A stretch of 56,514 nt of DNA, filler included, from Sluysia triapertura (taxonomy: Eukaryota): assembly GCA_046118255.1 (NCBI GenBank). It is 4 parts of 4 records of this genome, joined end to end, with 100 filler letters (N's around TTAATTAATTAA, not from the genome) between each part and the next. Parts side by side here need not be neighbours in the genome. Positions count along the whole stretch, not along the records: positions 11,931 to 33,392 come from JBJNIA010255077.1; 3 more parts are not named here. One strand, written 5' to 3'. Below are positions 559 to 51,584 of the stretch, in pieces. Each line of letters starts with the position of its first letter. Positions within the stretch are counted from its first letter, which is position 1. The notes under the pieces were generated by a model. That model saw only the letters and a program-made list of their open reading frames with translations, had not been told where the DNA came from and ran no database searches. The position numbers and the translations under genes are program-made.

Positions 559-3419
559 ACGCACGAGTTTAAAGTGAGATGTTTTCGAAATTGACGGTCA
601 TAAGGGTTCCGATGAAGTACTTCATAATAAATTTCGCAATCAGTACTTAATTACTTGCTAACTGACGTATTAAATTTTAATAAGTTATCCTGATGGATAA
701 ACATTTATGTTTTGAAATTTTTTATTGACAACATTCATGCATTTTAAAATAATAATTTTTGTACAATCTTAAAATAAATAATAAATAAATAAATAGTAAA
801 CTTTATTGGTTTATATACATATTTCAATAAATAACAAATGATGATAAAGCAAGTAAAATAAACTTTAACTAATTCTTTATTTGAAAATTTACAATCAAAA
901 TGATAAATAAATTCATATACAATATTAATTAAAGGTTAAAAACAAAATAAAATTGAATCTTGCATTTATTATCTACAATAGTAAGTTTCTCTTCAAAAGA
1001 CATTTGATCCAACATTTATATTTCGCTTTTCTATTTTGAATCCTATAAACTCAGTACGTAATTTATTTTGTAACAATTGTAAAATAAGTCATTTCATGTT
1101 TTGAATTATGTATTGTTGATACATTAATAATACAGACTTATATCTCGCGCTTAATTTCATATTTGTTTTAAAATTGGGCGCATTTAGATTCAAATATATT
1201 ATCAATAGATAATTTACAAAATTAAAATATAAATGTTTCATGCAAGACTCAATATGGTTTGAATAATCTTCAGAATTTGAAAAATTAACATGCTTTAAAA
1301 TATTATTTTCACTGACACAAACATAAAATAAAATTCGATAATCGTTTCAACCATACATGATATTTGAAGTTGTTCTGGTAGACATTGTTTTGAAAACGTA
1401 GATAAATAAAATTTACCTATTGTGTTTACAATTAGTGTGTTTAAATTTTGAGTTCACTACATTTACAAATAAGATATTCTCAAGAATTACATAAAGATGC
1501 ACAAAAAAGCTAAGTAACACAATTTTGAAATAGGAGATAAAGTTCTAATAGATTATCCATTAACAAGACATGGTCAGTCTCATAAATTACACAAGCCTTT
1601 TAAAGAACGTTATGAAGTTATGAAAACTACCTTAACTAATTTATTTATTAAGGATTAAGGTTAACATGTAAGTTGGCACCAAAAAATGAATATAATTTGA
1701 GAAATATTCCTAAAACTGCATTAAAAATAATACCTAAAAAGATAGAGACAAACTGTACGTAATCTCTTCAGCTGTTGACAAGCAAATAATAATGATGTTG
1801 AATTCTTAAATTTGATTAACCAAGTACAAATAAATCAAAGGTGGATAAAAGCCTTGATTGAGAAAGGCACGAGTAATTCTATTGTCCAATAAAATATATC
1901 AGATACTCTAGAAATTGCTATGAGACAGCAGCCTGTGTTAAATGTTTACAGTGTCATTTATTTATGTAAATGGAATTTTTGTAATGTCAAATTACAATTT
2001 CGAAAAACAATGTTTGTTGTTCAATACTAGTGTGGGACAAAAGTCCCTATGAAGAAATAATAGGATTAGACGTGATTAAATATTTAGAGGACATAGTAAT
2101 TCGTAGTAGGCACGGTTATGTACACCTTTATAGATTTCAATAGCTCAACCAAATCCGATGCAACAAGTTTTCGTACATGGTTAAGTAGCGCCACACATAA
2201 CTCCACATTATCCAAACACAAGAAATGACATCGGAATCATCATCTATTAATGTGGATAACTCAGACATAACATCAGTCTCTTCAGGAATTGAACTGGACC
2301 GTCCAGATATTAGTGCTATCAACTCTTCGAAAATTAACTGTATTTTTATACTTTTAAAGATTCAATATATAACTATATGTAACAATATAACAATACCCAA
2401 TAATATGTAAAAATGGATTCAGTCGACTAATAATACGTAATGAAAAATTCACTAATACTAAATACGTAATTAAATATTTACTAATATTAATTAACTTCTC
2501 CAATATGAGAATATATCTTAAACTACTAAAGAATTAAAATTGATTTTGTTATTATCATCGCACAATAATCGTATAGTAGATTAGGTAATAATATGATGTC
2601 AATTTAGATATGATTTTATTACTATCATATTAAGATAGCGCAATATTACTAAAAGATTTTTATGGATTTTAACATTTACACGTAAGAAAGGTAAAAAATT
2701 ATGCATAATAATAAACTTATGGATTTTTACAAATGAGAATAACTCCATCGTTAATTGATTTAGTTATTCATTAGCACGAGTAAATACTGGAGCACTAAGA
2801 AGCAATAGTCAAAATGACGTGAATAATAATACCAAGTAATAATTGAACAGTACCGAATAGCGTTTTATTATTATTTACTTTAATTTTAATTTCAGATACC
2901 GACAAATATTACTACGTAGTCATATTGGATCAGCTGATTAAGTGTTACTCAACTACAAGATTTACTAAACATTAGCTTATAACTTATTTTTCAATATCTG
3001 TGATGCAGCTTGCTAATATTTATTTTAACTTATCTAATATGCCCAGCAAAATATACATTCTTAATTGGGTCACTTGCGTCAATATTTCATATCAATTTAG
3101 AAGATGTCACAAGATTTAACTAAATATAACCTAAGTTTAACACAGATTTTCTACATATCTTCAGGTGTTAGCATATAACGCACTTAAAGCATTTTTGATT
3201 TATAATAGAAATAGAATCAAATAGAATAAAATAGGAATAGAATAAAATCACGAATTTTCTTTATAAAAATTAATCCTTTTGTCATTTAATTTAATAGCTA
3301 AAACAAAAATTGTTGTTAGGCAAAAAAATAATTATACTTTAATAATTATAAAAATATTCATTCCATTAAAAGATGGTAAAATAAAAAATAAAATATTCTT
3401 TAATTAAAAGGAACTTTCC

Positions 3420-5349: not shown

Positions 5350-6756
5350 GAGTAAACTGTCAAAGTTGGCAGTAGTAACCAAAATGATGATAATAATGAA
5401 AATAATAATCAAAAATAATAAAATTAATAATAATAATGGTTAATAATAATAATAATAACAATTAATAAAAATCATAATAAATAAAACACATGAATCTTTT
5501 ACATATATTCTTCTTTTTTTATTAAAGTTGGAAATATTGAAAAAAATTCCATTTTGATTATAATGATGTTTTGAATTAACTTTGAAATGTAAATTTGATG
5601 ATTTTGATGTTATGAAATTGTGAACTTAAAATGTGTTGAAATGTCTAAAATTTTAAAGGTTTTGAAGTAATATGTGAAATGTTATGAAATGTAGTTTTTA
5701 GTTCTAATAGTGACATTTGAAATTAACCAATTTCTACTAAAATTCTAATAACTTTTCTGTTCTTTTCCTTTCTTTTATTTTTTGGGCACTATTTAAAATA
5801 TGCCTGTTGATTGGCACATCAATAAAATTTTTTACACTTTTATAATTATAAGATTTTTTAATATTAATAATAACAATAATGTTTCTGTTATTATTAACAC
5901 TAACTGAATGCGAAATACATAAATTCTTTATGTAATCCACTAAACTTTCTTTCTTTTATTACTTTCTGTTTAACATATTATAAATTAAAATGGAATGGTA
6001 AAAACGATAAAATTGAATTCAATAACAATAACAAGATGCACGATATTCAAGTTATTGTTGCTACTGCATTGCATGAACTTGAATTCTTTAAAACTGCACA
6101 CGATCTTCCTTTGATTTTTCGGAATTTATTGACATATTGTAATAAATTTAAAATATGTTTGGAACTAAAGTTTCTGAGTAGAAATTGCTTTGGATGAATT
6201 GGTAAGTTAGGGTTTCAAGGTATGATAGTTGATTTAAATCGTGACATGAAATAGAAAATGTTAGAATGAGTTCTTAGATGGTGATTAAAGTTCATACTTG
6301 AAAACGACATTTAAGTATTGGAAGATCGAGGATAAAAGACCTATTGAGAAGATTGTAATTTGGTAAATGTAAAAAGGCAACTACAATACAAATCTTGGTA
6401 TATTTAAAATTTATTGTGCCGTGTTTTATTGTTTTTTTTAAAAAAGGTATTGTCTTGTGTTGTTGGTGATTATGCAGAGACGAATGGTAAATTTAAGGTG
6501 TTGTTATTGATTCGGAGGTGTAAAGTAAATAATTTTAAATGTGGATATTATTTGGTTGTTAAGGGTGTTGAGTTTTAGATAAATTTGTTGGTAAAAGTTG
6601 ATGGTATTAGATGTAACTGTGGTTTGTATAGTATGAGCTTGTGAATGTAGCTTAGTTTAGGCAAATGAACTATTTTGTAATTGTGTAAATATTAAAGTGT
6701 TGAAAGTTTAATTAATTTTTTTATAATTTTAGCGGTTATAAAGGTTGTCCACCACA
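5350..6756 (-). repeat. TGTGGTGG-initiated CA-rich dispersed repeat, copy A
   Basis: Starts TGTGGTGGACAACCTTTATAACC on minus; aligns by eye over several hundred nt with 20507-21700; hairpin at ~6024-6059. Confidence 0.8.
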
Positions 6757-11743: not shown

Positions 11744-12087
11744 TGTTGTGTCTTTTAATATTTTTCTCTTCCCAAATTATTAAATCAAAAATCAACCATT
11801 GAATAAACTCAAAACCTCAGTGTATTTGGTNNNNNNNNNNNNNNNNNNNNNNNNNNNNNNNNNNNNNNNNNNNNTTAATTAATTAANNNNNNNNNNNNNN
11901 NNNNNNNNNNNNNNNNNNNNNNNNNNNNNNTATCGTCATTTTTATAGAGACAATTCGTATTATTATAATTTATATAATCTGATTGTAGTTTTGATATTAT
12001 ATCAAATATACTGAGGTTTTGAGTTTATTCAATTATTGATTTTTGATTTAATAATTTGGGAAGATAAAAATATTAAAAGACACAACA
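11744..12087. mobile_element. TIR element (TGTTGTGTC... termini, TIR at least ~85 nt) inserted 3' of the Gypsy ORF; interior lies in the assembly gap
   Basis: 11744-11830 is the near-perfect reverse complement of ~12001-12087; flanked by direct GTA(T); an uninterrupted paralogous site is at ~44592-44635. Confidence 0.65.
11831..11930. other. Assembly spacer (N44 TTAATTAATTAA N44; six-frame stop linker)
   Basis: Identical artificial 100-nt block occurs three times. Confidence 0.97.
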
Positions 12088-12090
12088 GTA

Positions 12091-12432
12091 TCATAATTTC
12101 GAAATTCGAGATATTCGGTTTTGTAGGTTTGGACTTATGTATTTATCGAGTATATCCAAGTCTATTATTAAATCAAAAGGTGATTCTTTCCAAACATAGA
12201 TATATTCGTTTATTTGCTTATCTAATATATTCAGGTGTGCATGTATTGTTCCATCTATATTTATTGGCGTCCGTTGCACGTTATAAATTATTGTTGGCGG
12301 TGGGTCCAAGAACACAGTTTCCCAAGTAGTTAAAAAGTTGTAATGTATCACCGATGTGGTTGCTCCTGTATCTATAACCGCTTGAATCCATCTACCATTA
12401 AATCGTACGTTTTGGAAAATGTGTGTACGTAT
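12091..12432 (-). CDS. Second retropepsin-like aspartic protease (PR2), fused in frame C-terminal to integrase
   Basis: VRFNGRWIQAVIDTGATTSVI...DLIIDLDIL in ORF 12091..13074; DTG at ~12364-12372. Confidence 0.85.
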   Translation of the reverse strand: MRTHIFQNVRFNGRWIQAVIDTGATTSVIHYNFLTTWETVFLDPPPTIIYNVQRTPINIDGTIHAHLNILDKQINEYIYVWKESPFDLIIDLDILDKYISPNLQNRISRISKL

Positions 12433-12585
12433 TCCAGTTGATACGTGGTATATCATTATTACTTGTTTATCGACCAGTGACTGAACTGAGGATGGTAGTT
12501 CATCGCGATCTTTTGTTCTAGGTTTAATCTTTAATTTACATTTTTTAACAATTATATTTCTTAACCTATACTCATCTGTTGGTGC

Positions 12586-13510
12586 GATCTTACATCTGTT
12601 CGCATGTACTACAAAGGTTTCGGAATCTATTTTAGTAGTGTCCTTAACGAATAAATTAGTATCAGTGACTCTCATTACTTCGTACGGTCCCTTGAATGGT
12701 TTGTGTAACTTCGGTGATTGTCCTGGTTTAGTTAGCGGATATTCAACGAGTACTTTATCACCAATTTGAAAGTTGTGTTCTTTAGCTTTCTTATCATATG
12801 CATCCTTATGTGCCTCTTGTGAAAATTTTATTTGTAAACCAGCACGCTTCCACGCATCTTGTAGTCTTTCGTGCATTATTATTACATATTCTGGCATGTC
12901 CATATATTGTGATGTAGGTGGTATCCATTCTAAATCCATTGGCATATTTGAATGACGCCCGTACATTAAGTAAAATGGAGTAAAATTTGTTGCTGAACTT
13001 CTGTATGCGAATAAGCATGGTGCTATATATAAGTCCCAATTTGACTGTCTGTCGTTGACATAAGACTGAAGCATGTTTATCTCTCAACTAATCAACCAGT
13101 TTGTGGATGTTGAGGTGATGTATAAATTCTGAGAATATCAAATATTTTGACCTTGATCAGTTAATAGTTTCCGTGGTGTACCGTATCTGTATATTATTTT
13201 TTCAACAAGTATTTGTGCAACTGTTTCGGCTTTTTGATTTGGCATTGGGTATGCTTCAAGCCATTTAGTCAAATAATCATCGAATACAATAATGTATTTC
13301 CATTAATAGTTTTCGGTACCATAGGTTTGAGTGGTACCTTTGTTTTTATTCCCGTGTTTTTTCTTCCACAACAAATTGAACAATTCTTACACCATTTTCT
13401 AATATCTTCCATGTCCTCCCAATAATATTTATCTTTTATACGCAATAATGTTTTCCTCAAAGATAGATGTCCGCCTAGTTGACCATCATGAAATTGTATT
13501 AATATTGGCG
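12586..13510 (-). pseudogene. Integrase (HHCC, rve core, GPY/F module), frameshifted
   Basis: FHDGQLGGHL..YYW..CSIC; DYLTKWLEAYP..TDQG; HPQTG.LVER; TPFYLMYGR; KLHKPFKGPYEV..VHANRCK. Confidence 0.93.
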
Positions 13511-13671
13511 TTATTAATGATTTGGGGACTATCGTTTTCCAGTCTTCCTTCGAATCTCTAAATCGAAGGATTCCATCCGTAATTGCTAATCTCTTTGTCT
13601 GATTTTATATTAGTGTTCCCTTTGCTAGTGAATTGATAATAGATGAAATCTCTTCGTCTTCCCTTTGATGT

Positions 13672-14090
13672 TTAATAATTTCCTTTATCATCTACATTAG
13701 TTAATCGTGACATACAATCAGCGCCATTATTTTGTGAACCTGGTTTGTAAATAACTTCTAAATCAAATTCGGATAGTTTGTTGAACCATCTATTCAATCT
13801 ACTCACTTCGTCTCTATGATTATACAAGTAGGTTAGTGGTTTGTGGTCTGTATACAAATAAACTTTTTGTCCTAACAGATAATGCCGAAATAGCTTACAT
13901 GCATATACTATTGCTAAACATTCCTTTTCTATCGTCGAATAGTTCATTTCAGATTTATTCAATCTTCGACTAGCATATGCAATTACTGCTTCTAAGTTTT
14001 TATCTTTTTGTCCTAAAATTGCTCCTATGGCATAATTACTAGCATCTGTGGTGAGTATAAATGGTTTATTGACATCAGGGAATATTAATA
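13672..14090 (-). pseudogene. RNase H of Gypsy pol
   Basis: FILTTDASNYAIGAILGQ..IAYASRRLNKSEMNYSTIEKECLAIV..YTDHKPL..ADCMSR. Confidence 0.95.
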
Positions 14091-14099
14091 TTGGTGTCG

Positions 14100-15010
14100 T
14101 TAATCGTTCTTTTAATTCGTTAAAAGCTTTTGTTTGTTCTTCCGTCCATCTAAACTCGACATCGTTTTTAGTTAATTTTCAGAGGGGTTGTGTTATTTTA
14201 GCGAAATTTTGAACAAATCTCCTATAGTAATTAGCTAGTCCTAAAAACTTTGAACCTTTTTTACGTTATCAGGTTGTGGGAATTTTACCACTTTTTCTAC
14301 ATTTCTCGGATTGGGTTTTATTCCAGCTTTTGGTACTATGTGTCCTAAAAATTCGCCTTTTTCTTCAGCCCAAACACATTTGGTTGGTTTAATTTTCAAC
14401 CGAGCTATTTCTAATCTGTTTAACATATTATCAATGTCTTTTATATGTGTTTCAAAATCTTTAGAAAATATTATTATGTCATCTATATATATACCATGAC
14501 ATTTTTGCATCCTGATAATACAAAATTCATGCATCTTTGAAACGTTGCAGGTACGCTTTTTCTCACATTCGTATAATTCATCACCATAAGTGAATGCGAT
14601 TTTATGTTTATCTTTTTCGGCAATTTCGATTTGCCAATAACCGCTGTAAATCAAGAGTTGTAAAATATGTGGCATTTCCTAGTTTGTCCAGCATTTCATC
14701 TATTCGTGGTAAGGGAAATACGTCTTTTCTTGTTATCTTATGTAATTCTCTAAAATCTATACAAAATCTCATTGTACCATCTTTCTTTTTAACCAGTAAA
14801 ACTGGAGATGAGAAAGTTGAGAAGCTTGGTCTTATTACTCCGGCCTTTTTCATTGTGTCTATTTGTTCTTGCATCTCCTTTTGTTTACATATTGGTATTA
14901 TGTACGGCTTTTTTCGGATTACCTTATCTATTATTAGCGGTATCTCGTGTTTTATTATTACGGAATCTCCAATGTCGTATTTTTTTGCTATTGCTCTGGG
15001 ATATCGGTAA
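14100..15010 (-). pseudogene. Reverse transcriptase of Gypsy pol, frameshifted
   Basis: SSPVLLVKKKDGTMRFCIDFRELHK..FPLPRIDEML..YFTTLDL; GYWQI; YIDDIIIFS; FLGHIV. Confidence 0.96.
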
Positions 15011-15410: not shown

Positions 15411-15479
15411 TCATCATCAATAGTTCTCGATCGACTATCCATTAATTTAACTTGGTCAAAATCTAGTGTTACTCCTTTC

Positions 15480-15747
15480 AATTGAGACAATATATCCATC
15501 CCCATTATCATTTCTTCTGGACATTTTTTCATAACTCTTAATTTAATTTCTAGTTTATTTTGTCCTATTTCATTACTCCAGTTATGTTAATAGCATCACC
15601 TGTGACTCCTGATAAGTGGGAGGTATGATTCGCTAAGTTTTTCAATTCATCTTTATTTAAGAAATTTTCATTAATTAAAGAAGCTACCGCTTCTGTATCG
15701 ATTAATGATGTTACTACTCCATTTACTCTAGCGTTAACTATTGGTCT
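15480..15747 (-). pseudogene. Canonical-position aspartic protease (PR1)
   Basis: RPIVNARVNG..SLIDTEAVASLI (DTG mutated to DTE) .. GVTG .. MIMGMDIL. Confidence 0.85.
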
Positions 15748-16009
15748 CTTTGATCCATTATAGTTATTATTTGCGCAAATCATATATATTACGTGTGGCG
15801 GTGACAATGGAGCGTTAGAATGTATCCCTTTATTTTGATTTTCTTTAGCTGTTTTGTCCTCTGTTATTTTATTTCCATAAAATTTCTGATTTTCTATAAT
15901 TTCTTCGTTTTCATTATTCTGTAATGATTGCAGTGTTATATTTAACTGTTGTCTTTCTTGTGATTGATGCCTTTCTTTTCTTAATGCGTTTATCTGCGCA
16001 TTAGCATGA

Positions 16010-16810
16010 TGATGTAATAGATATTTTGCCAAAAAGGGGAAACATCAAATTATCAGTTTCTTATTACCGAAAATGCTTGAGATATTATTAGTGCAATTAC
16101 CTTAATTATTATGTAAATACCTATTAATCCGGAAAATGCCTGTCCTAATATTAAAAATTTTCCCCATATGTGTTTTAGTGTATCCTGCGCTGCTCTTTTA
16201 AAATGGGCAGGTCCTAATAATAATTCAAAATTTATTTGTCCATTCTTCTCTACTGTTGCTTATTTACTATTTCTGTTAATATTTTCGACCTTTTAATTGG
16301 GAACAAGATTTCCCGCCAAGCTGCCTTTAATGTCGTCGTTTGTATACATATCCGAGTTTGGTATATTTTTTGTAGCTAAAAATTTTAATTTTCCTTTTAG
16401 TTCGGTTAATCCTATTATTTCCGGAGTTTTTACTTGACTCCTATGTGGTAAGGATATCCATAGGTTATCATCTATTCTATACTCTGGAGCAATAACAGAA
16501 CAATGCATTAATTTCGGTTTGACTTCATTGTTTGGGAAAATTACTCTAGTTACTGGTTCTAAATGTTTTTATCATACAATATAGGCAATTCGTTTGTGCA
16601 TTCAGTGGTTGATCTTAATTGTACTTCAACGTTTTTACATTTATGTGTATAATACTTCTCCCATTAGTCGACCGAAAACTCCTTCTAATGGTAATAATGG
16701 TGCGACCAAGTCTGGATTTGTGATTACTATTGCTAATTTTGTACGCAAGATTTCCTTATTGATATGGCAATCGCGAATAACCATTATTTGGTAAATTTTT
16801 TCTAAAGATA
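16010..16810 (-). pseudogene. Chuvirus-like (class III/gB-type) envelope glycoprotein, C-terminal half with TM region
   Basis: Frameshift-corrected: IYQIMVIRDCHINKEILRTKLAIVITNPDL..GRLMGEVLYT/KCKNVEVQLRSTTECTNELPI../LEPVTRVI..CSVIAPEYRI..W..P..MYTNDDI/AWREILFPIKR../WGKFLILGQAFSGLIGIYIIIKVI; matches the recalled chuvirus G pattern GEV..KC.PV....CY.ELPV..P.TRI..GIY..D...IMFP..W..F..FG..S.G..G. Confidence 0.8.
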
Positions 16811-16811
16811 T

Positions 16812-17160
16812 TATATCTTTAAAGGTTAATTATATTTATCAATTCTTTCGAAACAAATATTACTCAGAAATTTAGTCCCAAATACATTTTTAATTCATTT
16901 TAATGTTAGAAATCATTAAGAATTTTAGGAAAACCCTATAGAGTTTTAAAGAATTCAATTTTATACAATGAAATAACAACGATAACTCTAGCATAGTGCA
17001 CCCTGTTATCGTTGCTGTTTCACTCAGTTTTGTCAATTTTTATTTTATTTTTATTTTTATATGTAAGAAATAAGTAAGAAAGAAAGATCGTGTGATATAT
17101 CTGAAAGAAAGTTATTGTTATTATTATTATTATCAATTATTAATATTTTAATTTATTAAA
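16812..17160 (+). repeat. Partial copy of the TGTGGTGG repeat family (3' part); truncates the env gene
   Basis: Direct similarity to 21248-21640, including the hairpin at 16969-17022. Confidence 0.85.
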
Positions 17161-19263: not shown

Positions 19264-19584
19264 TTATTTTACTGTGAATTCGTAAGATCTTCTAAACTTT
19301 TTTCTATAATATACCTCACATTCCTTAACTGTGACACGACACATAGGGCAAGAAGGAAAAGGAGTTGGGGCAGATTCGAACAGAAAATAGAGACAACGGA
19401 AATGAAAACGGTGTTTACAGGGAATAGTCACGGAGTAGTATTTTCTAATTGGTTGACGACAAATTGCACAGATGGTAAAACGTATTTGGGTAGACATTAT
19501 CGACTGGAACAAAGATACAATATAGTATACAGTATTATTAATAAAAAATATTATAGAAGCAAATAAGTTAAATATCGATACCAT
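19264..19584 (-). CDS. Small intronless RING-H2 zinc-finger protein (putative E3 ligase)
   Basis: CAIC-x13-CKHRFHFRC-x14-CPMC, i.e. C3H2C3; frame intact. Confidence 0.85.
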   Translation of the reverse strand: MVSIFNLFASIIFFINNTVYYIVSLFQSIMSTQIRFTICAICRQPIRKYYSVTIPCKHRFHFRCLYFLFESAPTPFPSCPMCRVTVKECEVYYRKKFRRSYEFTVK

Positions 19585-19746
19585 ATATTACATATTGACC
19601 TAACTAGACAAACTAAAATATGAGTTATTCAACATCACCTTCTCATGATCGATAATGGATAGTTAACAGCCATCACATATGGTCAGCAAGCAGGGAGTGT
19701 CTTTACTCATACTTTATGTTCTAATTATTAATTTTAAGTGAGTATT

Positions 19747-20361
19747 TCATGCTTTAATAAAAAGATGATTCCTGTACCTAATGAACAAATAGAACTTATG
19801 AATTTGACAAACAATATGTATTACTGATGTAGTTAGAAAAAGACATGTTATAACATGGTAAAAGAGTATAGATTGGTAGAGATTTAATATAGTGTCCTCT
19901 GTGGAATTTCTATTCGAGTAGTTCTGACATTGTGAGCTTAAGTTTTTACTTAACTTAGTGGTATAGTTTAGATTTTTAATATTTCGTACTGTACTTTTAG
20001 TACTTGCAGTAGTAGTGGTAGTAATAATGGTTTGTGTTGAAGTAGTGACAATATCCTGTTCTTTTAGTATTTGTACCATTAGATCACACACTATACTCTG
20101 GCCAAAATCCACGTGATCAAGAATTTCATTATAACGTAAAATCCACACTTCAATAAATTTAAGATTAGGCTCTGGTGCAAAATATAGATTAACGCCAGTG
20201 TTTGGAAGGATTAAGGCATAGTGTTGTTCCTTGTTAAATAATTCGTCAAAATTTTTCTTAGGTATATCCTTTTTATCTCTTTCGTGACCAATTATAATAG
20301 CGTTTTCTAATACCGGATTTGTTATCCGTACAAAGTTATTACCTTCCCTATATAATAACAT
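19747..20361 (-). CDS. Orphan protein with Thr-rich linker and C-terminal hydrophobic (TM-like) segment
   Basis: 204-aa open frame in AT-rich DNA; TTSTQTIITTTTTAST followed by ILFYHVITCLFLTTSVIHIVC. Confidence 0.5.
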   Translation of the reverse strand: MLLYREGNNFVRITNPVLENAIIIGHERDKKDIPKKNFDELFNKEQHYALILPNTGVNLYFAPEPNLKFIEVWILRYNEILDHVDFGQSIVCDLMVQILKEQDIVTTSTQTIITTTTTASTKSTVRNIKNLNYTTKLSKNLSSQCQNYSNRNSTEDTILNLYQSILFYHVITCLFLTTSVIHIVCQIHKFYLFIRYRNHLFIKA

Positions 20362-20506
20362 TAAAAACTTAATAGTTATTGATAAGTGATTAAAAGCGTA
20401 AGGTTGTGTCCTAACTTTATAATTATGTATTGATATAACTTTCGAGTTTTGTTTTAGTTCATATTCAAATTCTAACTTAAGAGTAATATTAAATAGCTGA
20501 TTTTCT

Positions 20507-21710
20507 TCTAGTGACCAACCTTAATAACCACTAAAATTTTATTGAAAATTAATTTTTTTTCTTCATTTCATACATCTCAACAGCTGTATATCCATTTATT
20601 ACATTCTTTAAAATCAAATTATATTCACAATTCCACAGCATCTAAATTATAATTACATTCAACATTATCAATTTATGTTAACTAATTCACCAGAAACATT
20701 ACTCGACATTCACAATAATCCAACAACAAATACATTCGAAGTAATCCAATTAATACTTTCGAACCCTTTATTTTATACTACATTTTAACAATCAATACCC
20801 AATAATTAATAACATTTATTCAATAGTTTATTTGCTGCAACTAAATCACAATCATAAACTCATAACACATAAACCACAATTACAATTAACACCATTCCAC
20901 AACACTAATAAATCTACTCGAAACGCATAAATACCCACTTCACACCCTTGAATCAATTACAACGTTTCAAATGCACTATTCATCTATGCATAATCATCAT
21001 TAACACAAAACTACAACACCAAAAACATCAAACAAATTAATTACACAAAACATAGTATAACAACACCTTAAATATGCAAGGAGTTGTATTACATTGTTTT
21101 TAGATTCATTAAATTACAATCTTCCCAGTAAACCTTTTTATCCACGATATTTCAATACTTAGATCTTATTTTCAATTTTAACTTCAATCAATATTTAAGA
21201 ACTTATTCTAACATCATTTATTTCATTTTTGACTCAATTCATTCATCATATCTTTAAAGGTTAAATACAGTTATCAAATCTTTCAAAACAATCCTTACTC
21301 AGAAAGTTAGTTTCAAATACATTTTAACTTACTTCAACACGTTAAACATTTCTAGAATTTAAGCTAAATCTAATACAGTTTTAAAGAATTCAATTTTATA
21401 CAGTGGGATAGCAACGATAACTCCAGCATCATACACCCTGTTATCGTTGCTATTTCAATCATTTCCATCAATTTTTATTCAGTTTCTTTTGTTACCTTTT
21501 TATATGTCAAGAACTAAGATATAAAAGAAAGAAAAGATCGTGTTATTTTCTCGTAAAAAGAAATTTTATGCATTAATTGTATATTTTCGTTTTATCAATA
21601 ATAATAATAACAATATTGTTATTGTTATTATTATCAATAACTAAATTAATTATTACTAAAATTTTATATAATCCATAAATTTGTTACTACCACCACCAGT
21701 GTTGACGTTT
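20507..21710 (+). repeat. TGTGGTGG repeat family, copy B
   Basis: Starts TCTAGTGACCAACCTTAATAACCACTAAAATT (variant of the copy A start); aligns with A and D; ends at TTACTACCACCACCAGTG box. Confidence 0.8.
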
Positions 21711-25110: not shown

Positions 25111-26984
25111 AAGGTTACTGTAGATGTTTTCATCCAACAATATTTATTATCAATTCCTCATGCACTTTGTAATTCCATGTATTTCTTACCCATCTCCTGT
25201 TCCACAGTGGGACAATCCCAACAATACAAAGAACCACATTTTACTATTATTCAGGCATGGAAAAATTATTGCAGCAGCTGTAAGGCTGATTCAATACAGT
25301 AATAGCAAACACTGACTGAATCTGACAGATTTTTAGAAATCTAACTAAATTTTATCTTTAAGTCAACTTATTTGTGGTTCTTGAGCTTTATTGTAATTTT
25401 GATACTAACATTTACATGTGTTGTGTAAACCCTGAGATTGAGTATTAAAATCAATTTTTATTTATAGAATTATTTTGAAACTGATTTATAATAAATTGTC
25501 GTAAACAGACCAAATTAACGAATATTTGATTTTTATTGTGATATAGTTATTATGTATTTGTATTTTATAATTAATGTTAATTATTATAATTTAAAAAATA
25601 TTTTCTATAAAATTGATCTGATTGGCAATTTATTTGCTAAATTCTAGCACTTCATTTTATTTTACAAATAAGATTGCTTTGGTCAAATATATTATTTGTT
25701 CATTCAATGATAGTAAATGATACTTGTTTTAGATGTCTTGACATTGTGTCAGAATGCATTAAATATGTTCAGATTTTATTAAAACTTTAACTGGACAATT
25801 ATGAATATCTTACTGGGTTCGCCTATAATCTAAGATTTGCATCTCACGGAAGACTTAGTTATGGGATTTCAATGAGTCAATACTTCGAAAGAGTCCTTAA
25901 TCTAAATGTAATAGTCCTTTTATTATAATGGAGGGTCTGTAAAGAATTTATCTTTTCGTATAAACAAATCAATTTTATGATGTAATAAAACTCGAGTAAG
26001 TCTCTAATATATATTCCAGAAGAAAAGTTAAGTAGTGTATTAAAATTTTGAGTACAAATATATATAATATGAACAAAAATAAATTCAAATGATATACAAA
26101 TATATACTAGGATTTTGTCCTAAGTTATTTTATTACAACGAAAATTTAGATAAGATTTTAACCCAGGTGAATACTGGGGCGTTGAAAGTTAAAAATATAT
26201 TAAGTGTATTTAACACAAACTTATTTTTGTGAATAGCTTAATATAAGTAGTTTACGGTTTTACAAATATATATTCTCGATCCGAAGAATTTCCAAATATA
26301 AGATTTAGGTACGAATTCCAAATACTCCGTATGTAAACCAATTGTGTCGCCAACCAAGTAGAAATCCAACTGAATTTGATAATATCGACCACGAATAAAA
26401 ATTATCCTTGTACTTCACGTAAAACTTCTTGAAATCGTAAAACGAACAACTTGTATAAGAAAAGTGAATAACCAAATTGATTCAAATAATTGCGTTTGTT
26501 ATCGAAAACCGTGAACTATTTATACTAAGCAAAATTTTTTGAAGTCTACCGACAAGCTTTAATATGTACCGGCTATTTTCTTTCGGTAGATATTATTTTA
26601 TTTATTTTGCAAGAAAATATGATTAAAATTATTTGGTAAATTATATCTTTTTGATAAAAATTAATTAATTAGTACAAAACTTCTTTTTTGTTTTCAGACA
26701 AAATTAATTAATTTGTACTTTTAAATTATAATTTTTTAACCAAAAATGTTTTTTCAAATTACTAAAATTATTCAAAAATTGTTTAAATTATTAAAAATAA
26801 TTAAATTAACTAATCATATTTTCACTAATTAAATTATATTTTTACTAATTAAATTTTATTTACAGTACTAGTCAACTTTCCTAGTAACGGATAAGTCCAC
26901 ATTTGATAATAGTGTTTTTTATAATGTAAATTTCAAAATTAAAACAATTCTACAATTTAAACTAAACCAACTATCCCAGCCATC

Positions 26985-27500
26985 ACACTATATTCCTGGG
27001 CCATTAGGTTTGAATACTGTAGAAGTTTGGGTTTTACTTTGTCACTTGGAAATATTACTCTAGTTACAAATTCTAAATATGGTTGTGTTTTATCGTATAA
27101 TATTGGTAGTTCATTGATACATTCTGTCTCTCATCTTATATTTGTACCTTTTTGCATTTAATGAATATAACATTTCTCCCGTTGGTTTGCCGAAAACTTC
27201 TTCTGGGTTTGTAATAGTTAACACCAATTTTATGCTTAGTAATTATGCTTAGTAATTAATTATAAATTTTTCTAAGGACGTCAATCCTAGATGGTAATAG
27301 AAATCTATCTTATTATTAAAATGCGTATTTAATTTTATGTTTTTTGCAACGATCCCTACTTTAGCGTTTAATGTTATTTATTTTGACAGAAAAATACTCT
27401 TGTAATATCAGAGTGATACTAATATCAGTCCATCTTCTTCCTTACTTTCGGTATTTCCACTTCATTTACTTTTTTCCTCTGTAAGAAGTCTGTATTTTCA
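26985..27500 (-). pseudogene. Second remnant of the chuvirus-like glycoprotein
   Basis: KNIKLNTHFNNKIDFYYHLGLTSLEK..ITNP..VFG..GE..ETECINELPILYDKTQPYLEFVTRVIFPSDKVKPKL; aligns with ~16480-16810 and extends it N-terminally. Confidence 0.85.
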
Positions 27501-27550
27501 TTATTCATTTGTTTTAGGTTTATTTCTTTTATTAGAAATTTATTATTATC

Positions 27551-27697
27551 TTAGTAAACAAATTCCCAAGAATTCAAAAAAATTCGGCGAACAACAGAAA
27601 TAGTAACACCATTGTCAATCGCGGCTTTTAACCAGACACTGTTGAAATTAATATTTTGAATAATATGTCCCTGAGTACGAGGTACATAATTATTCAT
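27551..27697 (-). pseudogene. Remnant of the post-integrase protease (PR2 paralogue)
   Basis: GHIIQNINFNSVWLKAAIDNGVTISVVRRIFLNSWEFVY vs THIFQNVRFNGRWIQAVIDTGATTSVIHYNFLTTWETVF. Confidence 0.8.
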
Positions 27698-28129
27698 AAT
27701 TATTCATCATTTAATTATTCGAAACTGAATTTTACTTGTTTTAAAAATATCAGAATATATTGATATTTGTTCAATTCATAAATTAAGGTAGATTTGATCG
27801 ATTCTACCAAATAAACGTGACATTATAGTTCTTTTTCTATATCATAACTTTCGATAAATGATTTCAAAGTTACAACATATGTTTCTTGTGCTAGGTTAAT
27901 CTTTATTTCATATTCCATAGATTCCTGTTCGTATGCCCTGTCTAGCAGTTTTAATATTATAAATTATTTTTTCGTTACCTTTATTTATGTAAAAGGTCTC
28001 CAGGGCACCTCTGCAGTTATTAGTTAATATTTAAAAAGTTTTAAAACTTTTGACAGTTCCATTATTGAGGAGTGGCTATCGTGTCCATAATACCATATTG
28101 CCACCGATCTCTTAACTTCTTGGTAGATG

Positions 28130-28380
28130 TTTTGAATGTTAAGAAACCTGCTCCAGTGATTGGCTGTTGCACTGAAATGGCTAAGTTTAAAATGACGTTT
28201 TCTGGAGCCATTTGCTGATGTGAGGAAAGAGCGCGTCTAGGAAGTTTTTATGATCATTTTGTGTAGAATGACAGACATGGCAGCTCTAGTATCAACCAGA
28301 AAATCCAAGATGTTAAATTTGAATTTCAAGAATGTGAACGGCAGAGTAAAAATATTATTTATCTTCAGGTGGTTTGGTCT
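28130..28380 (-). pseudogene. Retropepsin remnant of a different Gypsy family
   Basis: FLVDTRAAMSVI..LTSANGS..VQQPITGAGFL. Confidence 0.65.
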
Positions 28381-29390
28381 TGCCGCAATGACGGCTGGCA
28401 TATTTAGTTTTTTGGGATTGTATTGAAATTTTTATAATAATGATTGATCATTAATCAAGTTTTTGTTTTGTACTTAGTAAAGTCTGACAATCATTACTAT
28501 GTAATTGTTAGAGCTGCCATTGTTGGTTCGATTGTGACATGATGTTCAAACGATTTGTGTAAGAAAATGTTTGATTGCAAAACTCAAGATTGATTGGATA
28601 ATGAGAAAGTGCAAAAAAAGTACGAAACTCCAGGATGATTGGAAAATGAAAATTTATAGAACAAAGTTTAAAAAATGAAATTTATAAAATTTATAAAATG
28701 AAGTTTGACTTATATTTAATCAGTGGATTTATATTTTAAATAATTCACTTACTAATTAATTTTATTTTTCTTTTAAATTACTTGATGTATGGCTAGGAGT
28801 TATTTTAATTTTATTTGTAAAATTGTGAAACGTGTAAATTTCGTGAAATAAAAAAACCTAATAAAAGTTGAAAATGCAAAATCAGAAAAATCTTGACTAG
28901 CATTTAATAACTTTAGCTAATGAATTGTAAGGTACCGAAATGGCAAGAAAATTTTAGGACACAGACTTTAATTTAACAATTAACTATTAATATCTCTGTA
29001 TATAATTTTAGATTTTTTACAATTCCACAAAATTACGTGTTCAAAAATGCGATTACTTTTATTTTAACTTCGACTTATTTTGAACAATATTTTCAACCAA
29101 AAATTAAAAATTTTATAAATTTCGTTCAAAATACGTAATTAGACATAATTATAATTAGGTAAAATTAAACTAATATATAAGATATAAAAATATATTAAAA
29201 ATGTATTGTCATTTTTAAACATATTCCTGAAAGTAATTTTAAAAATCGTTTGCATTATTTTATTTAAATGGATGATAATTGAAAACATGATTTCATAGAT
29301 TTTATTATATAATTTAAAATTAATTTTAAAATTGTTTATTTATATTTTGTTTAAATAATTATAGTTAATAAAAAACTAATAATTTAAATA

Positions 29391-30320
29391 ATGGCCGTAA
29401 GTAAACTTATAAAGAATAGTGTATATTTCAAAAGGTTGCAAACTAAGTTTAGAAGGCGAAGAAGTGCGTTTTATTGATAATAAATTGATTATTTAAATTA
29501 AGGTGGTCAAACTGATTATTACGCCAGAAAACGTTTAATACACCAAGATAAAAATAAATATGGTACGCCAAAATATAGAATGGTAGTACGATTTACCAAC
29601 AAATGTGTCATTTGTCAAATTGTTTCTGCAGAAATAATTGGTGATAAAGTTTTTTGCTCGGCTTATTCGACGGAGTTACCAAAATATGGTTTAAATGTAG
29701 GATTAACCAACTATTCTGCTGCATATTGTACTGGTTACCTATTAGCTAGAAGAACATTAAAGAAACTAGGTATGGATGATCTCTATAAAGGTACAACAGA
29801 ATTTGGGGGTAAAGATAATGAAATCCAAGAAAATCCCGACAGAAGACCATTCACAGCTCATTTGGATGTAGGTTTAAGACGTACAACAACTGGTGCTAAC
29901 CTTTTCGGGGCTCTTAAAGGTGCAGTTGATGGCGATCTTAATGTGCCACACAAAACAACTAGATTTCCGGGAGCTAAGAAAGACAAATACGATGAAAGCG
30001 TTCATACGGATAGGATTTTTGGTAATCACATTAGTGAATACATGCGTTACTTGCTTAACGAAGATGAGGAAAAGTACAATAAAACCTTTTCGGAATACAT
30101 TAAAAATGGCGTTGATGCCGATAATTACAAGGATAAAATCACTGAATGTTTAGAAAAAATTAGAAGTAATCCTGAAGCTAAAGAAAAACGAGATGGAGAA
30201 TACACTGGTAAGAAAATAATTCTGAAACAAAAGCGCAATTTGAAACAGCGCAAAGATAGAATAAAGCAAATTAAAGAAAGTATCTTAGATCAGTTGAGAC
30301 TTGAATGTGCAGAATCATAA
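29391..30320 (+). CDS. RPL5: 60S ribosomal protein L5 (uL18); exons 29391-29463 and 29503-30320, 39-nt intron
   Basis: Spliced MAVSKLIKNSVYFKRLQTKFRRRRS/GQTDYYARKRLIHQDKNKYGTPKYRMVVRFTN..GLTNYSAAYCTGYLLARR..LDVGLRRTTTGANLFGALKGAVDG; the GT..AG intron contains an in-frame stop. Confidence 0.97.
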
Positions 30321-38775: not shown

Positions 38776-39434
38776 TTAATATTAAAATTTTTACAAATCT
38801 TCCAATTATTTTGAATCTTAAAAAAAATTTTTCATGCAATATTGTTATGAATTCGAAAGAACCTTTTCATTTTAAAAGCGAAAGAGGGACAAATAATGCT
38901 TTTAAATACTCTCTGTACAGCGATCATTTATCACAAGAACTTCAATATAAAATGTCAAAGAGAATAGGTCAATCAAAAAAGGTTATTTATGCCTTATATA
39001 CAAAAAATGATGATCACGATTATAAATGATTTAGAGGTAAAATATAAAAAGAAGTTAAATGAAATTGCAGCAAAATTCAAATATGAAATCGACCAATTAG
39101 AAAATCAAATTAATGATATTGAACAAAAAAAGAATCCATTAGACCACGACACAAATCTGATTAGTTTTAAATATAAAGATATAGCCAAGGAATATAGAAT
39201 ATAGAAATAGAATCAAAGTTTGAAAGTCAAAACTCACATCACGTAGAACAACTATCTCAGTTGAATAAGCAACTTTCTTCATTGAGATTTTCTTATGAAG
39301 ATTTATGGAAAAATTTCCAATTTTTAGAAACCAACTTTAATCACCAGAATAGAAAACTACAAACAGAATTTGATACTAAACATCAAACAGAGTTGAAACC
39401 ATTAATTGATGAATATCGACAAAAAGAGAAACAA

Positions 39435-39530
39435 TTAAGAGTGTCGATAACGAGTGATTCCAAAGCTGGGAAAACATCAATTGTAAACCGTTATGTTCAT
39501 CATGCTTTTGAAGATCGTTATAAAGTAACA
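39435..39530 (+). pseudogene. Rab-like small GTPase P-loop fragment (Rab32/38-like) following a coiled-coil segment
   Basis: LRVSITSDSKAGKTSIVNRYVHHAFEDRYKVT; downstream G3/G4/G5 motifs absent. Confidence 0.65.
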
Positions 39531-39966
39531 AAATGGAAAAAAGACAATGCAGTGCCAACCAGCAAAACGAAAAACGATATACACAGGATGACTAAAGAGA
39601 CTTTAGAAATCGTTGCAGTATCAGCCGAAAATGCTACAGGTCACATCCGGAGAGCAACTTTTATTCATACCATATTGAAATTATCGCATTTTAATATTGT
39701 TACACAATTTTTGATTGAATTGAAGTTTCTACACTTGGTACTGAGCGATGGTATCCCTATTCTAAGGAAAAGCTCACGTTACTTAGCTTTTAAAGTTCAT
39801 AGAAGGTGTAACATTATTTATTTTAGTTTTGTAATCCATTTTCCCACCAACAACCGACTTAGACGGGAATATCGTTTGCTTAGTACCAAGAGCGAGTCCG
39901 AAGGTTTAAGAATTTTAAAATGTTGCTCGATTTTTTATTTTTTGATTTTTATTTTGAAATTGACAT

Positions 39967-40554
39967 ATGATCCTCACCGAAGTATGTTTGTTTGTCGTGT
40001 ATGTTGAGAGTATGATACATTACTGCCATGACAAATTTACTCGTACGATGTATTTTCACGTCAAACTAGATTTTTGGGATGATTCTCTTATTTTTATGCT
40101 TTGTCGTGCATATGCAAGATTCCCTTGCGAATTCAAAATTGAGGCTCACCTTAAGGTTGGAAGTTTAGGTACAATGCATAATTATAACGCGCGCATACTT
40201 AATTGTCTAGATCGACATGAAATTTTAAATAATTTTAAAATCTGTTCTAACTACGTTGTTGTATATCTTTGGTATGAAGTTTTTATCATGTTTGAGCCTG
40301 GTGAGATAAATTTTGCTGTTCATAATGTCGGAAAGAGTGGAAACTTAGGAGCGATATTCTACAGTCCTGCGGTTGATAGTAAATGTAAGTTTCGTACTAT
40401 TATACTTGTTCAATTTTTTAATGTGTCAACAATCTTTTTTTATGTGCGTATAATACAATTTTTTCATGTTATTCTTGTTCAAAAATTGTTCTTTATAAAG
40501 AAATTTTCGAGTGCCTTAAGCACCGATTTTGTCATAATTATAGATTTTATGTAG
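39967..40554 (+). CDS. Orphan 195-aa ORF
   Basis: Long open frame; antisense frames contain many stops; no domain recognised. Confidence 0.3.
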   Translation: MILTEVCLFVVYVESMIHYCHDKFTRTMYFHVKLDFWDDSLIFMLCRAYARFPCEFKIEAHLKVGSLGTMHNYNARILNCLDRHEILNNFKICSNYVVVYLWYEVFIMFEPGEINFAVHNVGKSGNLGAIFYSPAVDSKCKFRTIILVQFFNVSTIFFYVRIIQFFHVILVQKLFFIKKFSSALSTDFVIIIDFM

Positions 40555-50449: not shown

Positions 50450-51584
50450 AGTTACCACTAGTAGTGGTAGTTACTAAATTAATTAATTAAATGGACAAAA
50501 TGATAACAATAATGATAACAATGTTATTGGTATTATTATTAAAATTGCATAAATTCTTTAAATTCTTTGAAACATGAACTTTTCTTATATTCTTTAACAT
50601 TTCTTACATATTTAAAATGCAGTTGTTATCATGTGATGTGAGGTATTTCTAATTTGAAATGTTTTAAATCAATTTTAAATGTATGGTTGATGTTTTACCG
50701 TGTGATTTTAGTTATAATGCTGTATGATAAGGTGTAGAATGTTTACAATGAATTTTTAGATGCTAATTAAGGTGTCTAACTGAAGGTGAGATTGAGCAAT
50801 GAAAAGTTACAATTTAATTATTTTGAAATAGCATGAGTGTTTAAAATGAATGATAAATGTACAATGGAGTTTTAAATGAAAGTAATGTTTAGCTGTTAGG
50901 ATTGTGACTTGAAACTGCATTGAAAAGAGTGTAGTTTGGTGTATGAAAAGTAGATAAGTTATAGTCTAGCTTTTGGTATGTTCGCAAGGTACATTATACA
51001 ATGTTAAAAATATAATTTATTTTTCTGATATGTTTAAGTAATATTGTCTTTCTGTGCTGTTGGGGATTGATTGATAACAGATCATGAATTTAGAATGTTT
51101 GAATTAATTTGAAGGTGTCTAGTAGTTTATTTCGAATGTGGTTGTAGTTGGATTGTTATGACATGACGAATAAAATATTTTAGATGTATTTTTTAAATGT
51201 AAATTGATGGTTTTGGATGTCATTGTGGTTTGTATGTTACGAGATTGTAGATTTAAAATGTTTTGAAAAATGGGAGTTGATTTTGGTGGATCTGAAACGA
51301 AATAAGATATGGAAACGGTTTTGACGAATTCTAAAAGGTTGTTGTGTGGTGTAGTTATGTTTGTATTGAACTGTGAATTTAAAAATGTGAGTTGTAGATT
51401 TTGAGGGTGAGTGTGATATTGAAACATATGATCTTGATTATATTGACATGGAACTATGTATAAAATGTATTTTAATGAATTTTAAAATGTACATTGCATA
51501 TATTTTGAAAGTGTGTGTGGTTTTGTAATGCTTAAAGTAAAATTTTTAATAAAATTTGCTAAATGCAATAGGTCGGCCACCACA
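50450..51584 (-). repeat. TGTGGTGG repeat family, copy D
   Basis: Starts TGTGGTGGCCGACCT; shares the CAATCCAAC.ACA..ACATTCGAA block with B; ends at TAACTACCACTACTAGTG box. Confidence 0.7.

Follow-up and report, generated by a model that had tools for sequence, protein, structure and literature searches.

A retropepsin fused behind the integrase of an env-before-pol Gypsy element in Sluysia triapertura, an optional trait of its lineage

The stretch of DNA analysed here, which we call the window, comprises 56,514 nucleotides from assembly GCA_046118255.1 of Sluysia triapertura, in four parts joined by filler. It is AT-rich (18-37% GC in 1-kb bins), contains gaps, and carries the remains of a Gypsy element on the minus strand. 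One frame of 330 aa without any stop (12091-13083, minus strand) encodes the C-terminal part of an integrase (12574-13083, with the GPY motif at 12682-12690), a linker of 50 aa (12424-12573) and a retropepsin, PR2 (12118-12423). In the translation the GPY motif is found at aa 132-134, the integrase tail reaches to about aa 170, the linker takes up aa 171-220 and the retropepsin aa 221-322. The catalytic D[TS]G is present as DTGA (aa 238-241; 12361-12372), and the linker ends with the hydrophobic QVIMIY (12448-12465), a candidate cut site. An earlier note on this DNA had described a retropepsin C-terminal to the integrase in the same ORF, after a linker of about 50 aa and with an intact DTGA, and both the stop-free translation and the fold model bear this out. 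It had also called the protease complete, with an intact C-terminal motif, and this was wrong: in the motif IIDLD (12154-12168) the aspartate stands where 27 of 28 aligned proteases have glycine, and the PR2 of the present copy is not intact. The glycine motif is kept in a second copy in the window and in the accessory domains of the relatives.

An HMM check, which had been proposed in the earlier note, gives a divided answer, as four aspartyl-protease models of Pfam match PR2, the best being PF09668 (E 1.5e-4), but all of them below the curated cut-offs (22.3 against 26 bits for PF09668). Profiles made from the proteases of the relatives, with the window sequences excluded, score PR2 at iE 1.4e-17 and 7.7e-16. 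AlphaFold, run on a 28-row alignment, gives PR2 a single-lobe retropepsin fold with a pLDDT of 88.5, and the best fold matches in Foldseek are the retropepsins of Ddi1, EIAV and HIV (E 3.6e-6 and up). Searching P0001 against the PDB sequences with phmmer gave no match, only a profile search did, and a word-based search with the PR2 region, which is a weak method, gave none either. Judging from sequence and modelled fold, PR2 is a genuine retropepsin domain (clan AA, family A2-like), which would act as a homodimer.

The Pol of the window element has the order of Metaviridae (Ty3/Gypsy), with protease, reverse transcriptase (RT) and RNase H, followed by an integrase with the GPY/F module. The zinc domain and broken core of the integrase lie at 13084-13604, RNase H at 13672-14178, and RT in pieces in two frames at 14241-15000, all on the minus strand like the rest of the element. 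The canonical protease, PR1, is frameshifted (15461-15747, minus strand), with its catalytic motif DTEA split over two frames, and the stretch HVIYMI lies upstream of it (15778-15795); both this and QVIMIY are present as the earlier note had said. Next to PR1, and with its tail in frame with it, is the broken C-terminal third of a chuvirus/gB-type envelope gene (15943-16829, minus strand), where PF24664 matches on three pieces. The gag gene and the other two thirds of env are missing, and a dispersed repeat starts at 16810; copies of its family, 67-78% identical, lie at 5859-6642, 16810-17096, 20602-21633 and 51042-51272, and one of them interrupts env. No chromodomain was matched by Pfam in P0001. 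The copy is dead, with stops and frameshifts, and truncated at both ends. An unrelated and far more abundant repeat (11931-12087, minus strand), interrupted by a gap, begins with TGTTGTG four bases past the stop codon of PR2; there is a second copy of it at 11744, and its summed depth in run X1 is far higher. Together, repeat and gap hide the sequence originally 3' of PR2, and with them directly beyond PR2 no membrane tail is seen in this copy.

Two more copies of PR2 are found in the window. One, more decayed, carries the integrase tail and the linker, followed by PR2 in both its halves, glycine motif included (1463-2113, plus strand; an integrase piece also at 245-528), and the other is a remnant with the end of the linker and the N-terminal half of PR2 (27491-27700, minus strand), in a scrambled context with an env remnant adjoining (26975-27449). 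Beyond the former there is an open stretch (2200-2400, plus strand) with a short hydrophobic run at its end, suggestive of a decayed signal segment. Run X1 is possibly the source of the window itself; 5,549 of its contigs match 11931-14200 at 80% or more, and among the eight pieces listed, record 1 (12220-12564, 58 differing letters) and record 3 (12407-12665, 44 differing letters) both bridge linker and PR2. When other copies were checked for an end after the integrase, the second window copy and the run contigs were thus found to continue into PR2. The differences between window and run contigs are synonymous in 6 of 8 cases in PR2, 6 of 12 in the integrase and 1 of 4 in the linker, counted on 40 listed of 404 differences.

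Some other features of the window were noted. An ORF with an ectodomain-like part, a threonine-rich stalk and a C-terminal hydrophobic segment (19747-20520, minus strand) is followed by a RING-finger ORF (19264-19587, minus strand); the ORFs between 17406 and 20520 gave no convincing match to the tails and accessory ORFs of the lineage, and are not counted as parts of the element. By eye, a remnant of another Gypsy-type protease can be seen in the translation of 28200-28400 (minus strand). A single frame of 272 aa (29502-30320, plus strand) encodes ribosomal protein L5, which shares about 52-56% identity with the proteins of many named animals, while one unnamed protein reaches 64%; this would mean a fast-evolving host or a retrocopy. 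An ORF of 269 aa (39198-40007, plus strand) begins with a coiled coil and weakly matches a P-loop domain (Roc/Ras).

Relatives were sought among 1.84 billion representative proteins, and in four of the best 150 matches (P0003, P0004, P0006 and P0008, all in the top six) a protease lies no more than about 45 aa from the integrase match. A metagenome scan gave 80 loci, with a post-integrase protease in L001, L003 and L009 and none in L002, L004, L005, L006 or L007, and a profile search added six members, P0273 with and five without one. Counting P0008 once with L003 (99.8% identical), seven of 22 relatives from metagenome assemblies carry the post-integrase protease, or eight of 23 lineage members with the window included; among the profile-search matches, none of 32 other Gypsy proteins has it. 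The protease begins 35-60 aa beyond the integrase match, with no gag in between. Four proteins were set aside as tandem or chimeric models: P0116, P0072 and P0071, where the second protease lies more than 300 aa past the integrase and gag features recur, and P0112 on distance alone (908 aa). Viral contigs were scanned twice and no relatives were found in either scan. A single assembly accounts for six of the eight loci, and as P0008 is also the same as L003, the number of independent hosts is small. P0010 and P0276 are polyproteins of eukaryotic retroelements whose records bear the names of bacterial MAGs (Flavobacteriaceae and Turicibacter), which is probably binning contamination.

In a 39-row tree of RNase H and integrase, the window falls inside a group of 17 members (SH 94; 95 and starred with P0018), seven of which carry the post-integrase protease, and at least four gains or losses are needed; the six proteins added later are in the count of eight in 23 and not on this tree. 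The element belongs to an env-before-pol lineage of Gypsy, like the GAG-ENV-POL errantiviruses of flatworms and Burro. The two-protease layout, which the earlier note had proposed for a single polyprotein, recurs in the second window copy, in the run contigs and in the seven relatives, and by these comparisons the fusion of integrase and PR2 is real and a trait of the family. It is also optional within the lineage, since 15 of the 23 members do without it.

Each intact relative is a single ORF, reaching 3,703 aa in the longest, and has one to three retropepsins. The order begins with gag and an Env that has transmembrane segments; between one and three proteases come next, then RT, RNase H and the integrase, and optionally a protease behind it. 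Beyond Pol there is usually a type-I membrane protein, with a hydrophobic signal-like segment, an ectodomain and a transmembrane segment, and a hydropathy scan predicts a transmembrane segment after the integrase in 18 of the 22 relatives, the remaining four ending early. We found no description of such a post-integrase membrane protein in those parts of the literature that were compared. In L002 (10069-10731), as in the tails of most relatives, Pol runs in frame into this protein, and the tail ectodomain of L002 is modelled, with moderate confidence, as two beta-sandwiches resembling fibronectin type III pairs (pLDDT 63.8, TM about 0.3). The one ORF of L002 runs from a zinc-knuckle gag through a weak ubiquitin-like domain to Env and two proteases, and on to RT, RNase H, integrase and the membrane protein, and a whole gB/chuvirus-type env is found in P0004, P0010, L002 and L004. 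A conserved module of 80 aa lies between protease and RT, has no Pfam name, and is labelled dUTPase-like from its position and from published papers. Of nine cases scanned, five have an ORF of its own downstream of the polyprotein that matches the exonuclease family RNase T (DEDDh) (L001:8592-9920, L002:12085-13470, L003:9043-10371, L004:10617-12104 and L006:3712-5556), and by eye some elements have two of them. No long terminal direct repeat was found in any of the seven lineage contigs scanned, which are partial, and the window copy is cut at both ends.

The number and the place of the proteases vary. P0004 has three, one after Env, one before RT and one after the integrase, L004 has three and P0005 two, all before RT, while P0006 has two after the integrase. 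L001 and L003 have one after the integrase and then, in tandem with it, a conserved protease-like domain altered to EVG (L001:3715-4053, L003:4131-4460), followed by ankyrin repeats, and P0010 has a single protease in its whole gag-env-pol-tail ORF of 2,627 aa. All 15 accessory domains of the relatives occupy one of two places, the interval from the Env tail to the main protease or the region behind the integrase, and no accessory protease was found at the gag-Env hinge of L002 and P0010. In L004 a unit of protease and membrane protein is located between Env and the main protease, with 73 aa from the protease to the hydrophobic segment, and as this resembles the post-integrase units of P0004 (78 aa) and L009 (42 aa), protease and membrane protein seem to move together; in L001 and L003 the two lie about 527 aa apart, with ankyrin repeats in the interval. 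Relatives with up to three proteases in movable positions, and with a second membrane anchor after the integrase, go beyond what the earlier note had described.

The phylogenetic analyses of the protease domains place 14 accessory domains of the relatives in a group apart from the main proteases (76/98 and 91/85, not starred). Their subtypes keep their identity across positions, as P0004's domain behind Env forms a pair with the first of the two that follow the integrase in P0006 (100/98), and several subtypes that are only 26-37% identical coexist in one element. The accessory domains vary faster than the core enzymes, with 57% identity against 88-96%, and in a second comparison 36% against 49% for the main protease. 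Between L001 and L003, with dS near saturation, dN and dS are 0.28 and 1.11 for the protease, 0.52 and 1.32 for the linker, and 0.06 and 1.83 for RT.

When one ORF combines an internal signal and a fusogen with a cytosolic Pol and then another protein that has signal and anchor, Pol stays bound to membranes at either end, and the cuts of signal peptidase are made on the luminal side only. The explanation we favour, with a probability of roughly 0.45, is that PR2 is an optional accessory retropepsin that cuts the hinge of the polyprotein between the integrase and the membrane anchor that follows, which would free both PR2 itself and the replication enzymes. The polyprotein would thread the ER membrane, the Env tail holding Pol at its start and the internal signal peptide holding it at its end, and a cytosolic cut would be needed at both hinges. 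The extra proteases could have come from an old duplication of the main protease, followed by divergence and by shuffling between the two hinges, and where there is none the main protease would make the cut. We favour this role because all 15 accessory domains are placed in these two hinges and because the L004 unit has moved together. It also agrees with D[TS]G being kept in most accessory domains, with the dN and dS of the post-integrase protease in L001 and L003, and with the mostly synonymous differences in PR2. Against it stand the long ankyrin interval of L001 and L003, the gag-Env hinge of L002 and P0010, where no accessory protease was found, and the window copy, where no membrane tail is seen behind PR2. 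The motif [VI]xM[ILVM], picked after the sequences had been seen, precedes eight of 22 proteases against 250 of 4,418 background windows (5.7%), and one of 20 outgroup proteases, which lends some support to HVIYMI and QVIMIY as candidate cleavage sites. A role in processing an Env-Pol precursor, as the earlier note had suggested, agrees with the single frame of Env tail and PR1 and with the membrane-threaded Env-Pol of the intact relatives, but the second protease is not a necessity for it: P0010 has one protease only, and 15 of the 23 lack the post-integrase protease although most of them have a membrane tail.

The faster evolution of the accessory domains would also fit a conflict with the host. 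The accessory proteases could excise themselves and then attack host proteins, such as antiviral, cell-death or silencing factors, as a cargo like the other modules of the lineage; this is the main rival reading, and we regard it as possible but less likely. The slots of these proteases are also used by zinc fingers, ankyrin repeats, the ubiquitin-like domain and the downstream DEDDh exonuclease ORFs, the proteases have been gained or lost at least four times on the tree, subtypes of 26-37% identity are found together in one element, and the reading fits such a patchy, fast-evolving and cargo-like behaviour. However, we know of no host substrate, and the coupling to the following signal-like segment in three elements is not predicted. 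There are parallels in the apoptosis and ubiquitin cargo described for Burro (PMC6431247) and in the self-cleaving leader proteases of plant RNA viruses, which have host-related roles (PMC5967125). Cutting of host proteins and cutting of the hinge are not mutually exclusive, and we tentatively suggest that this retrovirus-like lineage may have evolved accessory retropepsins as a separate class that moves about, with a maximum of two in a polyprotein in addition to the main one and with specificities of their own, which would process a multi-pass Gag-Env-Pol-receptor polyprotein and also cut host defence proteins, in parallel to the accessory proteases of RNA viruses.

It is also conceivable, if unlikely, that the PR2 of the window is a lineage-local duplicate of its own PR1, a nearly neutral or back-up passenger that is convergent with the accessory class of the relatives. 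The two are distinct, as the earlier note had claimed, with 30% identity over 97 columns, and yet this is the highest value for PR2 against any whole domain, the others giving 17-25%. The phylogeny of PR1 and PR2, likewise proposed in the earlier note, gives PR2 no firm place: its branch is long and falls outside the accessory group in two trees, inside it at SH 90 in another, and neither a tree with PR1 and the PR2 copies together (p-AU 0.636, 2.6 log units above the free quick tree) nor one with PR2 in the accessory class (p-AU 0.405) is rejected. On the other hand, the accessory profile gives each of the three PR2 copies a better score than the main profile does (52.6 against 47.2 bits for PR2), with the reverse for PR1, the position of PR2 agrees with that in the relatives, and there is a synonymous excess. 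A shared AT-rich composition and decay can also draw the window sequences together.

Since retropepsins act as dimers, the extra domains might instead tune the main protease by pairing with it, either in timing or as inhibitors. The second post-integrase domain retained in L001 and L003, which reads EVG (dN 0.43 against dS 1.97), is in line with this, as are L002 and P0005 with two proteases about 80 aa apart, but the catalytic motif D[TS]G is kept in 13 of the 15 accessory domains and their C-terminal strands are unlike those of the main protease, and we hold pairing to be quite improbable. An origin of PR2 in some unrelated element, through an accidental in-frame junction, or in a chimera of assembly or gene model, is refuted, in spite of a window rich in nested fragments, a gap 160 bases away and chimeras among the matches (P0116, P0072 and P0071), by the same linker and PR2 after the integrase in the diverged second window copy, by run X1 contigs that bridge linker and PR2 with 44-58 differences, and by seven relatives with this layout in uninterrupted ORFs.

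Gypsy pol has one protease, N-terminal to RT, and the usual addition after the integrase is a chromodomain. To our knowledge, LTR retroelements have been described with one protease, and our literature search, with Repbase outside it, gave no report of several retropepsins in one LTR element, so that an earlier description is possible. A lineage with one to three movable proteases is a natural series for studying how an element with capsid, fusogen, enzymes and a second surface protein in one ORF frees its enzymes from membranes, and the same series lets one ask whether retropepsins became host-directed effectors. For annotators there is a caution that a protease 3' of an integrase need not signal a nested element.

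Several known systems share some part of this layout. In chromoviruses there is also an additional domain past the GPY/F module (PMC12440569), but there it is a chromodomain, whereas in the window element it is an enzyme and there is no chromodomain; nothing further on proteases was found in the parts of PMC12440569 and PMC11410931 that were compared. The leader proteases L1 and L2 of closteroviruses, and P1 and HC of potyviruses, offer an analogy as extra cis-acting polyprotein proteases that accompany the main one or replace it, with host-related roles in the sections compared (PMC5967125), but they are papain-like and chymotrypsin-like monomers, not dimeric aspartic proteases, and do not belong to retroelements. 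Anakin is likewise an LTR element with a chuvirus-type env, but according to the text compared it is BEL/Pao. In arthropods no clear capture of a chuvirus glycoprotein by Gypsy is reported in the portion compared (PMC10084718). Troyka was dropped as a comparison, the part of its description at hand giving neither env nor extra domains. The bdelloid LTR elements Juno, Vesta and TelKA (Rodriguez 2017, PMC5408684) have extra ORFs after pol with a DEDD exonuclease and with transmembrane segments, and a module between protease and RT that is described as a dUTPase. They differ in that the extra genes are separate ORF3s, the env is of the paramyxovirus F type, and one protease is given in the sections compared.

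The closest likenesses are with elements where env stands in frame between gag and pol. This is the case in the HSV/gB errantiviruses of flatworm, nematode and bryozoan, among them the flatworm GAG-ENV-POL elements Smed_errantivirus_1-6 (Chary and Hayashi 2026, PMC13524379), which, as in the window element, have a Gypsy pol with a chuvirus/gB-type env ahead of it; the Env of Smed_errantivirus_1 resembles that of P0004 motif by motif, though by eye only. They differ in that one protease is drawn, the word protease occurring once in the main text and not in the supplements, and the portions compared describe neither extra retropepsins nor a post-integrase membrane protein. That study required intact continuous ORFs for inclusion, which the relatives have and the window copy has not. 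Burro (GYPSM1; Arkhipova and Yushenova 2019, PMC6431247), a giant planarian Gypsy element whose env likewise stands in frame between gag and pol, has a single polyprotein with a mononegavirus-like fusion protein and with ankyrin and ubiquitin-like cargo, as found here. It is larger, more than 30 kb with an ORF of 4,873 aa that includes MATH, BIR and BCL2 domains, and one protease is listed in the parts compared; in the relatives scanned, with ORFs reaching 3,703 aa, Pfam matched none of these three domains. The arrangement of gag, env and pol in one ORF, as in Burro, is found complete in the 3,703 aa of L002, and the window preserves its env-pol part.
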